This document shows, piece by piece, positions 32,817 to 35,232 of a stretch of 64,000 nt of DNA. Under the pieces are notes generated by a model. The model was not told where the DNA came from, made no database searches, and saw only the letters and a program-made list of their open reading frames with translations. Made by a program: the position numbers and the translations under genes. Source of the DNA: Candidatus Yonathbacteria bacterium (GTDB lineage: Bacteria > Patescibacteriota > Minisyncoccia > Phycocordibacterales > UBA1550). Where the stretch lies: assembly GCA_003483855.1 (NCBI GenBank), contig DMXP01000005.1:29202-93201 (forward strand), in the 5' to 3' direction. The first letter of the stretch is position 1. Every line of letters starts with the position of its first letter.

Positions 32817-32959
32817 ACTATCTATAATAAATTCCTAATAAATCTTCCTCAATTAGTCTGAACTCTATCATTTTTTACCCAAAAAACCAAGCCAAAAAAA
32901 GGAGAATTTGGGATGTGGATAACTCAACCTATAAAAGTTGCCGTTTATTCGCAGATAGT

Positions 32960-33025
32960 ATATATTATAGGTATTAGGGCTTCGGCCTCCGAGATACCCG
33001 TCACCGCAAGGTGGCGGGTATCGAT
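32960..33025 (+). ncRNA. candidate plus-strand structured RNA (UUCG and GCAA tetraloop hairpins) antisense to the mazF-like 3-prime end
   Basis: ggc-TTCG-gcc hairpin at 32978-32987. An 8-bp + 4-bp stem capped by GCAA at 32993-33023. Preceded by TTGCCG-17nt-TATATT (32936-32964). The canonical tetraloops exist only on the plus strand. Confidence 0.25.
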
Positions 33026-33041
33026 GTTTACGGACGAGCCC

Positions 33042-33455
33042 TTAGGTATATATTCGGAAGGCTTCAACTACTCTATCAAATTCACTTTGATTAACAGTGT
33101 CCACCTTACGCAATAACCTATTATTACTAATCACGCGTGCTTGAGTAAGTTTAATCCAGACAGGCTTCGTATATTCCTCTTCCGTTTTACTATTTTTAGC
33201 TTGTATCTGAATCTCATAATGAAAGCCATCTAGTTTCTCTTTGCTCGTTATCGGTAGCACGAGCATGGTTTCTTTATTATACACTCGCACAACCAAAACT
33301 GGCCGTTCAAAATTTTCATTTTTGCCATCAACTTCTGCTCCGACATTTACACCAAGAGCGCACCACCATACTTCACGAGGATACGCATACGCTTTCTTTC
33401 CCGAATCACCTAAATTCTTTTTCTGTGAATTCCAAGCATCAAACTCTTTTTTCAT
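33042..33455 (-). CDS. MazF/PemK-family endoribonuclease toxin-like protein (no adjacent antitoxin gene)
   Basis: YPREVWWCALGVNVGAEVDGKNENFERPVLVVRVYN...MLVLPITSKEK...LTQARVISNNRLLRKVDTVNQSEFDRVVEAF aligns with MazF/PemK (RGDVY.ADL.PVVGSEQGGVRPVLVIQND...LEQIRTIDKQRL..). Confidence 0.75.
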   Translation of the reverse strand: MKKEFDAWNSQKKNLGDSGKKAYAYPREVWWCALGVNVGAEVDGKNENFERPVLVVRVYNKETMLVLPITSKEKLDGFHYEIQIQAKNSKTEEEYTKPVWIKLTQARVISNNRLLRKVDTVNQSEFDRVVEAFRIYT

Positions 33456-33591
33456 ATAGGCTCAATTATATCACGATTAATTATAGATAATTAAAGGTAC
33501 CTGACACCTTTCCCCTCCTTTTCTTCATATAGACATAACAAACTCCCAGCAATTGCTGAGAGTTTGTTATTAAATACACAGACCCCTTTAC

Positions 33592-34272
33592 TTATTTAAC
33601 GACCGCAGCATCCAACACAGCCTGCGCCTCCACATTCCCATTCTTTGAGGAGAGGGTTACCTCTGTAGGGGTAACAACGCCTCCAGAAGGAGGTAACACT
33701 GCTACTGATTTTATTTCATTCTCTATATCAGAAACAAAGCGACTTCCACTAAACATTTTGTGTAAATGCGCCAACTCTTCATCCCCTACGCCAATTTCTC
33801 CATTAACACTTACGGTGTATTTCCCTTGCGTCCAACCATTTACCGTAAACGCACCCAAGGAATCTCTTGTTAGGAAAACGAGGACACGATCGCCAGCCTT
33901 AAACGAAGGAGACCCTTCGACAATCATTTTTGTACCGCTTACCGAACCACCAAGAGTTTGAACAGCTAGCGTTTGAGAGGTGATGTTTTCTGGGTTATAA
34001 AGATACTTTTCAACCTCCAAAGTTACTGTAGAAACTATATCTTCTTCTCCTTCTCTAATTTTTGATGGATACTTACCACTTCGCACACTGCTTACCCTTG
34101 CAATAAGAGCCACTGTAGAACTTCTAATAAGCTCTTCTTTACTAATTTCAGCCAAAACTGCGTGCCCAACCACCGATGTCGTTTGGCTTGCTCTGGGTAA
34201 AAAAACATACACTCCCATACTTGCACCAATCACTACTAGCGAAATAATAACGGGCGAGATATTTCTTTTCAT
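33592..34272 (-). CDS. secreted hypothetical protein (signal peptide)
   Basis: MKRNISPVIISLVVIGASMGVYVFL signal or anchor. No recognisable domain. Confidence 0.55.
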   Translation of the reverse strand: MKRNISPVIISLVVIGASMGVYVFLPRASQTTSVVGHAVLAEISKEELIRSSTVALIARVSSVRSGKYPSKIREGEEDIVSTVTLEVEKYLYNPENITSQTLAVQTLGGSVSGTKMIVEGSPSFKAGDRVLVFLTRDSLGAFTVNGWTQGKYTVSVNGEIGVGDEELAHLHKMFSGSRFVSDIENEIKSVAVLPPSGGVVTPTEVTLSSKNGNVEAQAVLDAAVVK

Positions 34273-34311
34273 AAGTTGCGAGATAAATTAATTATTAATT
34301 AAAGACAAAAA

Positions 34312-34872
34312 TTAAGGGTACACGGCGTTTATTCCACTCAAGTCATCCGCAACGAGAGTACGCTTTTTAGTTTCACCAGTTCCGACATAGCCATACATCG
34401 TTTTTTCTGTATCTCCGCCACCATATAAGTCATTCAACATAAGAAAATGCCCGAATTCATGCGTTGCGACATTCTGCACATCATACAATCCAGGAGCCCC
34501 AGAAGTTGACCATGAGTAATAACTATTAAACACTAGATCGGTGTCTGTTATTGTAGACCCAGAAGAAGTAACTGTTGTTAGGGCAAGTGCTCCTGCGCCA
34601 AAATTTGAAACAGTGATATCGTTGTTTGATGTTCCAGCAGAAAAAGTAAACGGCGACGATGCCCCATTCCAAGGAGTCATCCCTTGTGCAATCGGTGTAA
34701 TCCACGAACTTGGTATACTTGGACTTCCAAAATCAGCAGTGGTTCCATTTGTTGACCACTTTACGCCAGCATATGAATATGCAGAAACGAATGACGGGAT
34801 CATTAAAACCAGCAACATCGTACCAAAACCAAAACTGAACATTTTTTTGAGAATTAACGTATTTCGAAGCAT
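34312..34872 (-). CDS. secreted zinc metalloprotease, snapalysin/matrixin-like (HExxHxxxxxD)
   Basis: Signal peptide, then ATHEFGHFLMLNDLY. This reads H-E-F-G-H-x5-D, the spacing of the snapalysin M7 zinc site HETGHVLGLPD. Confidence 0.7.
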   Translation of the reverse strand: MLRNTLILKKMFSFGFGTMLLVLMIPSFVSAYSYAGVKWSTNGTTADFGSPSIPSSWITPIAQGMTPWNGASSPFTFSAGTSNNDITVSNFGAGALALTTVTSSGSTITDTDLVFNSYYSWSTSGAPGLYDVQNVATHEFGHFLMLNDLYGGGDTEKTMYGYVGTGETKKRTLVADDLSGINAVYP

Positions 34873-35060
34873 AATTGAATTATTTATTAATTTTACATTG
34901 ATAGTATCTGCGCATCGACCATTACACTACAGTGTAGTAAAAAAAACTGGGTTTAGTAAATCCGCAACTGTGGACAACCTAAAAACCATTGAATAACCAC
35001 GGAACCGAAGCTAGTCACAGATAGGAAACGGGTACGGTTCACTGTCTCATTATATTTTAC

Positions 35061-35232
35061 CACTCCCCACTCCTCGTGCGAGGGATGCCTCTTGTGTGGG
35101 GACTTGCGAGCGTGAACCCAGGGTCATTCTGCTGAATGAGACGCTCACACGAGGACGATTTAGTAAAATCGCTCTTGGAGCTTTTCTAGCAAGAAAATAT
35201 CCGTACCCCGCACAAGACGGCTCCCGAGCTAT
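35061..35232. repeat. copy B of a ~170-bp palindromic (MITE-like) structured element
   Basis: Shares cctcttgtg[c/t]ggggacttgcga...cacgaggacgatttag[c/t]aaaatcgc...gcttttcta...atatccgtacc...cacaagacg...cccgagc with 53918-54086. The arms are mutually complementary. Confidence 0.5.

Follow-up and report, generated by a model that had tools for sequence, protein, structure and literature searches.

How does an ATP synthase operon come to be interrupted between the genes for its gamma and beta subunits, a junction that is among the most stable in bacteria? The question is raised by a 64-kb stretch of DNA from a Candidatus Yonathbacteria bacterium (hereafter the window), in which atpB-E-F-H-A-G lie on the minus strand and end at 35229, and atpD starts on the same strand at 32816. 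The canonical contiguity of atpBEFHAGDC is lost in this sequence: atpG, with which the upstream half ends, and atpD are 2,412 bp apart, and the distance is filled by three same-strand genes, hairpins, and a promoter-like element. The three genes encode a Peptidase_M10 protein of 186 aa, a protein of 226 aa, and a PemK/MazF-like protein of 137 aa. Open reading frames (ORFs) and Pfam matches agree in this with a preliminary description of the sequence, which had reported the split, a zinc protease, a MazF/PemK-like toxin gene, a palindromic repeat beside atpG, and a hairpin-rich segment, and had proposed a small acquired islet. We find it likely that the segment 32837–35228 is a mosaic accessory islet at a lineage-specific insertion and recombination hotspot of Candidatus Yonathbacteria (Parcubacteria/Paceibacterota), with a cargo of two independent modules and a proposed RNA antitoxin in one of them.

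The junction was compared among relatives in a scan of one genome per species, which gave 45 loci encoding AtpG relatives (labelled L0xx below); AtpA, AtpG, AtpD, AtpC, and the three islet proteins were mapped in each. At the family level, defined by AtpG at least 65% identical, 23 genomes are informative, the window included. The atpG-atpD gap is 37–67 bp in nine of these (L005, L008–L011, L017, L020, L021, and L024), about 183 bp in two (L006, 182 bp; L007, 184 bp), and 0.8–2.3 kb, with unrelated cargo, in 11 including the window. In the one remaining genome, L018, atpG stands before genes for IS30-like and DDE_Tnp_4 transposases, with thrS beyond them (7663–10556). The closest relative, L005, is 93–95% identical to the window in DNA over the atp genes, yet has a spacer of 37 bp. 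Alignment to L005 places the inserted DNA at approximately 32837–35228, with homology stopping at the atpG stop codon (35230), which forms the left boundary of the islet, and restarting at 32836, 20 nt 5' of the atpD ATG. An apparent internal deletion in the atpD gene of L005 was discarded, as the run of N there is masked sequence and of no biological meaning. Gaps in the outgroups, other Paceibacterota and Margulisbacteria, are 34–130 bp, with the exception of L029 (506 bp).

The cargo differs from locus to locus. Pfam assigns PemK/MazF genes to the junctions of the window, L012, L014, L016, and L022; PIN with a small upstream ORF to L013; HicA with UPF0150/HicB-like to L015 and to the more distant L026; RelB with YafQ to L023; DUF4258 with DUF2283 to L052; 23S_rRNA_IVP to L029; and NUDIX to L014, with several proteins of no known family elsewhere. 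The majority of the junction cargo thus consists of toxin-antitoxin genes, including MazF-like genes of two types. Had the same three genes stood between atpG and atpD across the lineage, the arrangement would have to be called ancestral, as the preliminary description pointed out; the trio is found in no other genome of the loci compared. What the filled alleles tend to share is a scaffold: a nested-palindrome repeat at the atpG stop codon, which we call E5, and an extended −10 promoter-like element before atpD, which we call E3. With one site, differing cargo, and empty alleles in close relatives, the atpG-atpD junction is a recurrent, lineage-specific hotspot in the Yonathbacteria family that has received at least 11 different fillings, and the acquired islet of the preliminary description is one instance of it rather than a one-off event.

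The third gene of the islet encodes a protein that, judged by its predicted structure, has a genuine MazF/PemK fold (an SH3-like barrel). The AlphaFold2 model has a predicted local distance difference test (pLDDT) score of 79, and the top 50 Foldseek matches are all MazF/YdcE proteins, with the MazF proteins of B. subtilis, S. aureus, and M. tuberculosis at the head (probability 1.0). Arg51 in an ERP motif and Thr70 in a P-x-T motif are invariant over 37 homologues and were matched to the catalytic residues of MazF by motif position. Members of the family also carry a conserved N-terminal extension of about 25 aa, a helix, that canonical MazF lacks. Two types can be distinguished: type 1, with 195 homologues, mostly in Patescibacteria, and type 2, with more than 1,300 relatives and 33% identity to type 1. 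The protein of the window is itself known from 8 contigs, the longest of 394 kb.

No conserved upstream protein antitoxin of the MazE or PemI kind is present in the window or across the contexts examined. In the 136 nt 5' of the MazF-like gene are a promoter-like site and a palindrome that is nearly perfect; the sole ORF there, of 32 aa, is unconserved. In ten other contexts of MazF-like genes the upstream neighbours all differ, being helicases, an NTPase, unrelated small ORFs, or nothing. In two contexts the MazF-like gene starts 3 nt past a large helicase gene. The homologues in L056, L059, L063, L073, L074, and L078 lie in surroundings that resemble defence islands or mobile elements, with MmeI, HsdM, and DpnI restriction-modification genes, fusions of PIF1/SLFN-type helicases with Peptidase_S24, FtsK/TraG, MNT-HepT, and other toxin-antitoxin genes. 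We also observed that 33456–33510, upstream of the type-1 toxin gene of the window, is 90% identical over 48 nt to 9091–9138 of L022, upstream of a type-2 toxin gene. This shared region suggests either a regulatory cassette held in common or recombination within the hotspot.

The constant feature of MazF-like loci is the stretch of about 100 nt right after the stop codon. It contains a predicted small RNA gene of about 65 nt that is convergent with the MazF-like gene and abuts it. In the window, the RNA would read, from its 5' end, AUUAGGGC(UUCG)GCC, UCCGAG, a 13-bp stem with a GCAA loop, and CGAUGUUU. The AUUAGGGC(UUCG)GCC-UCCGAG portion is invariant across instances, the long stem has 11–13 bp and is closed by a GNRA loop (GCAA, GAAA, or GUAA) in 11 of 12, and the 3' end consists of CGAU and a U-tract that reaches the toxin stop codon. 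The −10 hexamer of a sigma70-like promoter ends 11–12 nt before the UUCG hairpin in all 16 modules; these promoters score 8–11 of 12, compared with a mean best score of 6.8 in shuffled sequences, 7% of which reach at least 9. Among 12 distinct type-1 instances, 6 of the 11 pairs of the long stem are changed on both sides and 95.8% of cells are paired, which 0 of 500 shuffles attained. A covariance model built from these 12 instances retrieves just those 12, at 61–86 bits, from 704 kb searched on both strands. On these grounds the small RNA gene is well supported by sequence.

The RNA comes after 13 of 13 intact toxin genes inspected (nine of type 1 and four of type 2), most of them in unrelated contexts. 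The type-2 toxins, in L012, L016, L022, and a non-atp Giovannonibacteria locus, have an RNA subtype of their own that combines UUCG and GNRA hairpins with a terminator located inside the 3' coding region of the toxin gene (an overlap of about 45 nt). The RNA occurs without a toxin in L013 and, twice, in L019, and with a 5'-truncated toxin gene in L014; an intact toxin without the RNA was never seen among the loci inspected. An RNA that outlives its toxin, and never the reverse, is the pattern expected of an antitoxin. In L014 (9960–10296), the type-1 toxin promoter and the first 33 codons are cleanly deleted relative to the window and the small RNA gene is intact at 78 bits, which looks like decay of a toxin with its putative antitoxin kept.

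Other identities for this element were considered and rejected. It does not encode a protein, as differences in hairpin length are not multiples of three and no frame is kept. A dif- or attC-like site at the hairpin and the adjoining TATAATATATAC, a segment that we take to resemble the dif site of B. subtilis, was dropped when the segment resolved into the antisense promoter and the RNA. No ToxI-like tandem repeats are present in 32700–35400 except for a 15-nt AT run. A phage origin of the MazF-RNA module was discarded as well: in the viral contigs the RNA motif has no exact match, and a MazF-like relative is likewise absent. An Rfam search of the window at gathering thresholds returned only tRNAs, and at E ≤10 the region 32700–35400, on both strands, gave only matches at chance level (BTnc231, mir-1271, and a Pyrobaculum sRNA). 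Nothing relevant came from searches of the literature for RNA or antisense antitoxins of MazF, for toxin-antitoxin systems of the candidate phyla radiation (CPR), or for atpG/atpD hotspots.

The element after the MazF-like gene might still be no more than a bidirectional terminator or stabilizer of the 3' untranslated region, with the toxin controlled by its N-terminal extension or by an unrecognised protein, or with a protein that is not toxic. A hairpin at a stop codon is where a terminator usually stands, and terminator stems covary too; the family has the 25-aa extension, conserved and foreign to canonical MazF, and some homologues do have small upstream ORFs. However, the U-tract lies on the antisense strand, as do the GNRA and UUCG loops, and the G-U pairs of that strand would become A-C mismatches on the sense strand. 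A terminator also leaves aside the promoter in front of the first hairpin in every module and the second RNA subtype matched to the second toxin subtype. Beyond the terminator stem, 25 nt never vary, although the toxins share only 55–60% identity, and the element persists in three genomes after the toxin is gone or truncated. We consider a terminator-only role unlikely.

The small RNA gene is probably, by inference from conservation and linkage, the antitoxin of the MazF-like toxin, and the suggestion of the preliminary description that the MazF-like gene is an addiction module gains from the MazF fold, the lack of a protein antitoxin, and the putative RNA as constant partner. The second cargo module would then consist of a MazF-fold putative endoribonuclease and the convergent RNA that neutralises it, by direct binding, by pairing with the 3' end of the toxin mRNA, or by both. 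The invariance of the single-stranded segments of the RNA (AUUA and UCCGAG) favours the first route, which is that of type III systems. The second, known from type I systems, could operate instead or additionally. More tentatively, and with rather more doubt than confidence, we propose that MazF-fold toxins across Patescibacteria (about 200 of type 1 and more than 1,300 of type 2) are neutralised by a dedicated convergent RNA of about 65 nt, whose GNRA hairpin would double as its terminator, and not by MazE, in a new architecture between types I and III, and that in Yonathbacteria toxin-antitoxin cassettes have repeatedly settled in the ATP synthase operon and uncoupled it into two transcription units.

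How old are the fillings of the junction? On a neighbour-joining tree of concatenated AtpA, AtpG, and AtpD, empty and filled states are intermixed, and cargo and scaffold are conserved at least as well as the flanking core genes. HicAB of L015 and L026 are 79% identical, compared with 59–71% for the atp genes, and the RNA elements of the window and L019 are 89% identical, compared with 66–79%. Because the states are interleaved and the cargo is so similar, a single ancient insertion fits poorly, and repeated gain, loss, and replacement fit better. The ancestral junction is a spacer of 34–45 bp, which the nearest relative and about 40% of the family retain; the empty spacers share homology among themselves and with the final 20 nt 5' of atpD in the window. 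An islet or scaffold already present in the common ancestor of the family, with the 37–44-bp junctions as secondary precise deletions, would account for the many filled alleles and for E3 and E5 in the deep branches L015, L016, L019, and L023 (AtpG 66–76% identical to that of the window). It would also require that independent deletions restore the same homologous spacer repeatedly, and it sits badly with the short spacers of outgroup Paceibacterota and Margulisbacteria and with a cargo that differs in nearly every filled genome. We regard an ancestral islet as quite improbable.

The palindromic repeat at the atpG side of the islet was claimed earlier as a possible marker of the insertion edge. 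The repeat is real, with 20-nt arms (35082–35101 and 35206–35225) that are 80% complementary, and the 363-nt stretch that contains it (34873–35235) has a folding z of −2.45. It abuts the atpG stop codon in islets of different cargo: nhmmer finds E5 after atpG also in L012, L013, L014, L015, and L052, and a variant B in L007, L016, and L019. The predicted fold has 39 pairs, 13 of them with compensatory changes (RNAalifold), and in L014 both outer arms are swapped together. In L007, most of the 184-bp insert is variant B, with the stop codon on one side and the old spacer on the other; a possible TAG/GTAG duplication at this copy was noted by eye only. The repeat does mark the edge, but it is not specific to this islet: it is one of a dispersed family, of which the window has four copies and relatives have more. 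The weakest of the four (56354..56470) retains the architecture of E5 with co-varied arms. For three of the four, the start is at the stop codon of the gene before them, in the same orientation (atpG, an FtsX/MacB-like gene, and infB), which suggests a 3'-end element that serves as a terminator or stabiliser, or else an insertion preference. Multi-copy, extragenic, and imperfectly palindromic, E5 is a dispersed, structured repeat at gene 3' ends of the kind represented by repetitive extragenic palindromes (REPs) and miniature inverted-repeat transposable elements (MITEs). No RAYT or other transposase for E5 was identified in the sequences analysed.

E3 behaves differently. It is kept in L012, L013, L014, L015, L016, L019, L022, L023, L050, and L052, whose cargo is unrelated, and it is absent from the empty 37–44-bp junctions. 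Exact matches in a metagenome collection lie directly 5' of atpD in five of five cases, one of them L050, so that a dispersed repeat can be dismissed. L050 is itself unusual: on this metagenome contig 13 kb of glycosyltransferase and membrane-protein genes are followed by E3 and then atpD (808–14094).

The properties of E3 and E5 bear on whether the islet is a discrete mobile element (for instance a transposon, an integrative element, or a cassette of the integron-like or Xer-dependent kind) that inserts site-specifically, with E5 or the hairpins as its ends or recombination site. The E5 family does act like mobile palindromic repeats, with variant B filling most of the L007 insert, the cassette-like modules have common boundaries, and L018 has IS30-like and DDE_Tnp_4 transposases at the same junction. 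However, no integrase, transposase, or recombinase was found inside or beside the islet by ORF and Pfam analysis, and a repeat scan found no flanking direct repeats or target-site duplication of the islet. E3, on the right side, is unrelated to E5 and confined to atpD, and the hairpin suspected to be attC- or dif-like is the predicted small RNA gene with its promoter. The nearest tRNA is about 8 kb away, and the GC content of the islet, 0.45, equals that of the rest of the window. The islet does not qualify as a classical genomic island because it has no integrase or transposase, direct repeats, adjacent tRNA target, or atypical GC. A discrete mobile element is thus a poor candidate and highly improbable in our estimate. 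The remaining alternative, an assembly or binning artefact in which a chimeric contig joins the atp halves through unrelated DNA, is almost certainly wrong: two short Logan contigs from other samples (L003 and L004) stop 33 nt into E5, a multi-copy repeat, but the atp arrangement is not an artefact, because ENA (198 kb) and JGI (124 kb) groundwater metagenome contigs independently carry the identical gene order, and the MazF protein is on 8 contigs and more than 10 other metagenome-assembled genomes, from different studies, have comparable filled junctions.

The mosaic islet therefore stands as the preferred explanation, and its parts would work together as follows. The operon would be transcribed as atpBEFHAG and atpDC, and two transcription units would make the junction tolerant of insertions. 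Homologous recombination in the highly conserved atp sequences on either side would swap the cargo, and toxin-antitoxin cassettes would persist through addiction. Several points weigh against this explanation. No recombinase, integrase, or target-site duplication was found that would point to a mechanism of insertion. The neighbour-joining tree is crude, and the three concatenated proteins are possibly recombinant; functional constraint, and not lateral exchange, could be the reason why cargo and scaffold are so alike. For the antitoxin, 13 intact toxin loci in about 10 independent contexts stand for a family of roughly 1,500 members. In L059 and L074, a small unannotated ORF lies directly 5' of the toxin homologue; the two have no Pfam match and are unrelated to each other, and either could encode a protein antitoxin that has escaped recognition. 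A purely antisense mechanism is weakened by the slight overlap of type-1 RNAs with the coding region of the toxin, and the long hairpin could act mainly as a bidirectional terminator. Moreover, the promoters, the terminators, and the small RNA are predictions, and no intrinsic terminator was called in the islet by a consensus scan.

E3 probably drives atpDC, so that in filled alleles atpDC would be a transcription unit of its own; the existence of two such units would follow from this role of E3. The preliminary description had suggested an independent atpD promoter within 32817–33040, and the conserved E3, inside this interval, supports it. A second, hairpin-rich segment lies between the MazF-like gene and atpD, and between the divergent promoters of the small RNA and atpD is a DnaA-box-like site. 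This site, TTATCCACA or one mismatch from it, was observed in 8 of 16 MazF-RNA modules, namely in the window, L012, L014, L016, and L022 and at the non-atp loci L055, L063, and L078, at 42–59 nt past the UUCG hairpin and just 5' of the small-RNA promoter; the background is 0.055 per kb. It may tie expression of the putative antitoxin RNA or of atpDC to DnaA. A replication origin was rejected, as the 64 kb hold 6 boxes compared with 2.8 expected, without a cluster and without a switch in GC skew. Another DnaA-box-like motif, TTGTCCACA, lies at 34969–34977 in the spacer 5' of the protease gene (34873..35054), which also has an extended −10-like motif, TGGTAAAAT, at the edge of E5. At the other end of the protease pair, the palindrome at 33535..33570 is likely its terminator; the consensus scan for terminators made no call there, because a T-run is missing.

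The atpD-atpC gap also varies, being 1 nt in the window and 125–213 nt in several of L006, L007, L010, L013, L014, and L016. L016 has two AtpC-like matches, and the gap in L013 holds a fragment of E5 (5739–5761). The atpG-atpD gap of L006 (8534–8714) contains a different palindromic element, CACCCCGCCCCTTC ... GGAAGGGGCGGGGT. The L006 palindrome differs from E5, and therefore more than one kind of small palindromic element has reached the junction.

The other cargo module comprises a secreted matrixin- or snapalysin-like zinc protease and its 226-aa neighbour, maybe a partner related to tissue inhibitors of metalloproteinases (TIMPs) and netrin-like (NTR) modules. The zinc motif reported earlier for the protease is borne out: HEFGHFLMLND (HExxHx5D) is followed by a Met-turn, KTMY, as in M10 and M7 metzincins, and the protein has an N-terminal signal sequence. 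The PF00413 (M10) score is above the gathering threshold, and PF02031 (Peptidase_M7, the snapalysin family) matches weakly (E 0.046). NCBIfam metalloprotease matches are below their cut-offs. The best sequence matches in the Protein Data Bank are catalytic domains of matrix metalloproteinase 8 (MMP-8), whose HEFGHSLGLAH and ALMY align with the two motifs, with the consensus Gly replaced by Met. From its sequence, the M10 gene product is a small secreted metzincin of the matrixin/snapalysin kind.

The 226-aa protein, beta-rich and secreted or anchored, is the constant 3' neighbour of the metzincin. The pair recurs in L060 (4411–5696, 36% identical), between DUF8128 and mnmA, and a third pair is on the short contig L062. 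The model of the 226-aa protein, built from 5 sequences only, is of low confidence (pLDDT 57), and on this model two independent fold searches gave TIMP-2, N-TIMP-3, and other NTR modules as best matches, of weak to moderate strength (Foldseek E 1.5e-3 to TIMP-2). There is no Pfam TIMP/NTR match and no Cys at the predicted mature N terminus, and NCBIfam and defence-system models gave no match for this protein or for the MazF-like one. The 226-aa protein is possibly an NTR/TIMP-like OB-fold (oligonucleotide/oligosaccharide-binding fold) protein and so a candidate cognate inhibitor or partner, a reasonable but weak assignment, and the two proteins may form a bacterial protease/TIMP-like pair.

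Table 1. Coordinates in the window of the genes and sequence elements discussed; functional names of noncoding features are predictions.
Feature	Position	Strand	Remarks
atpG (F1 gamma)	36155..35229	-	PF00231, E 8e-84
E5 nested-palindrome repeat	35055..35228	-	starts directly after atpG stop codon
Islet-only spacer 5' of protease gene	34873..35054	-	no BLAST match in other loci
Peptidase_M10 gene (186 aa)	34872..34312	-	PF00413, E 6e-7
Gene for 226-aa protein, N-terminal hydrophobic anchor	34272..33592	-	no Pfam match
Palindrome, 18+18 nt	33535..33570	.	inverted repeat, 94% complementary, 0-nt loop; 3' of 226-aa gene
Promoter-like site of MazF-like gene	33480..33507	-	GTGTCA-16-TATAAT, 10/12 consensus matches
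PemK/MazF gene (137 aa)	33455..33042	-	PF02452, E 4e-17
Candidate small RNA gene	32969..33037	+	covariance-model score 75.5 bits
Small-RNA promoter-like site	32938..32966	+	TTGCCG-17-TATATT
DnaA-box-like TTATCCACA	32914..32922	-	between divergent small-RNA and atpD promoters
E3 extended −10 promoter-like element	32861..32891	-	TTGGTT-17-TGATAGAGT
atpD leader	32817..32860	-	proximal ~20 nt a relic of ancestral atpG-atpD spacer (AGGAAtTTAtTA...)
atpD (F1 beta)	32816..31434	-	PF00006, E 1.5e-73; first gene of atpDC half
atpC	31432..31193	-	ORF and Pfam calls
E5 copy 2	53921..54083	-	nhmmer E 5e-36; 5' of cysteine-desulfurase-like gene
E5 variant-B copy	26391..26534	+	nhmmer E 7e-39; starts at FtsX/MacB-like stop codon
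Weak E5-like copy 4	56354..56470	+	nhmmer E 0.007; starts at infB stop codon (ORF end 56355)

Overall, the gamma/beta junction is here a site of turnover throughout a family of ultra-small, reduced genomes, and the hotspot is direct evidence of frequent DNA exchange in organisms thought to be poor in mobile DNA. If the halves of the operon are transcribed separately with toxin cassettes between them, the question arises of how the alpha3-beta3 stoichiometry is kept. Many "orphan" MazF/PemK toxins are annotated in CPR genomes, and with an RNA as constant partner their tolerance would be explained. If MazF and an RNA antitoxin do work together, they would add an architecture to those of known toxin-antitoxin systems, and the covariance model is ready for finding more of them. 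In a bacterium, a matrixin-like protease next to a protein that is possibly TIMP/NTR-like would parallel, unexpectedly, the MMP/TIMP pairs of animals.

Comparison with known toxin-antitoxin systems shows a mixture of features. With type II MazEF/PemIK (Kis-Kid) the module shares the MazF/PemK fold, by motif position the Arg of ERP and the Thr of P-x-T, and the habit of a small mobile accessory gene near restriction-modification and conjugation genes; it differs in having no upstream co-transcribed MazE/PemI protein, an extra N-terminal helix, and a constant RNA partner. The type I systems with 3' overlap, such as txpA/RatA and bsrG/SR4 of B. subtilis, likewise have a cis-encoded convergent RNA that is complementary to the 3' end of the toxin message, and the RNA here has its own predicted promoter and terminator. 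The toxin, however, is a 137-aa soluble MazF-fold protein and not a small hydrophobic peptide (E. coli SymE/SymR is a type I example with a non-peptide toxin), the type-1 RNAs end at the stop codon, and invariant unpaired segments are not required by antisense pairing. In type III systems (ToxIN, CptIN, and TenpIN), as would be the case here, an endoribonuclease toxin is restrained by a dedicated structured RNA, and ToxN is structurally related to Kid/MazF. The RNA of the islet is single-copy, downstream, and convergent, whereas that of type III is an upstream co-transcribed array of tandem repeats, and the toxin matches PemK/MazF and not ToxN. The module fits none of types II, I, and III fully because a protein antitoxin, a peptide toxin, and upstream repeats are all missing. 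The pemK RNA motif of Rfam is a 5' untranslated region motif of Firmicutes pemK genes, and our literature search for it returned one methods preprint only. It too is a conserved RNA structure tied to PemK-family genes, but the RNA of the window is downstream and on the opposite strand and has no Rfam match to it at E ≤10.

The remaining parts of the islet also have counterparts. MMP/TIMP and serralysin AprA/AprI resemble the first module in that an M10-type protease is always followed by the same beta-rich protein with predicted TIMP/NTR fold matches, whereas the 226-aa model has a pLDDT of only 57 and the protein lacks a Pfam TIMP/NTR match and the N-terminal Cys of the TIMP type. E5 shares with REPs and bacterial interspersed mosaic elements, and with MITEs such as Correia, BOX, and RUP, a nested imperfect palindrome of 110–175 nt that is multi-copy and extragenic, often lies 3' of stop codons, and has covarying arms; its sequence resembles no known family and matches nothing in Rfam. 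Integration hotspots and flexible islets share with the junction variable accessory genes at one site, empty and filled alleles, toxin-antitoxin or defence cargo, and a host-like composition. The junction differs from them in its place within an essential operon that is normally contiguous, in a predicted promoter of its own for the downstream genes, in its very small size (0.2–2.3 kb), and in the lack of an integrase. Finally, a break at gamma/beta is familiar from split atp operons: in the cyanobacterial and plastid atp1/atp2 arrangement, beta and epsilon are encoded apart, the Peregrinibacteria in our comparison have atpDC upstream of atpA, and L018 and L050 are broken likewise. In the window, by contrast, the two halves are still same-strand neighbours, parted only by swappable cargo.

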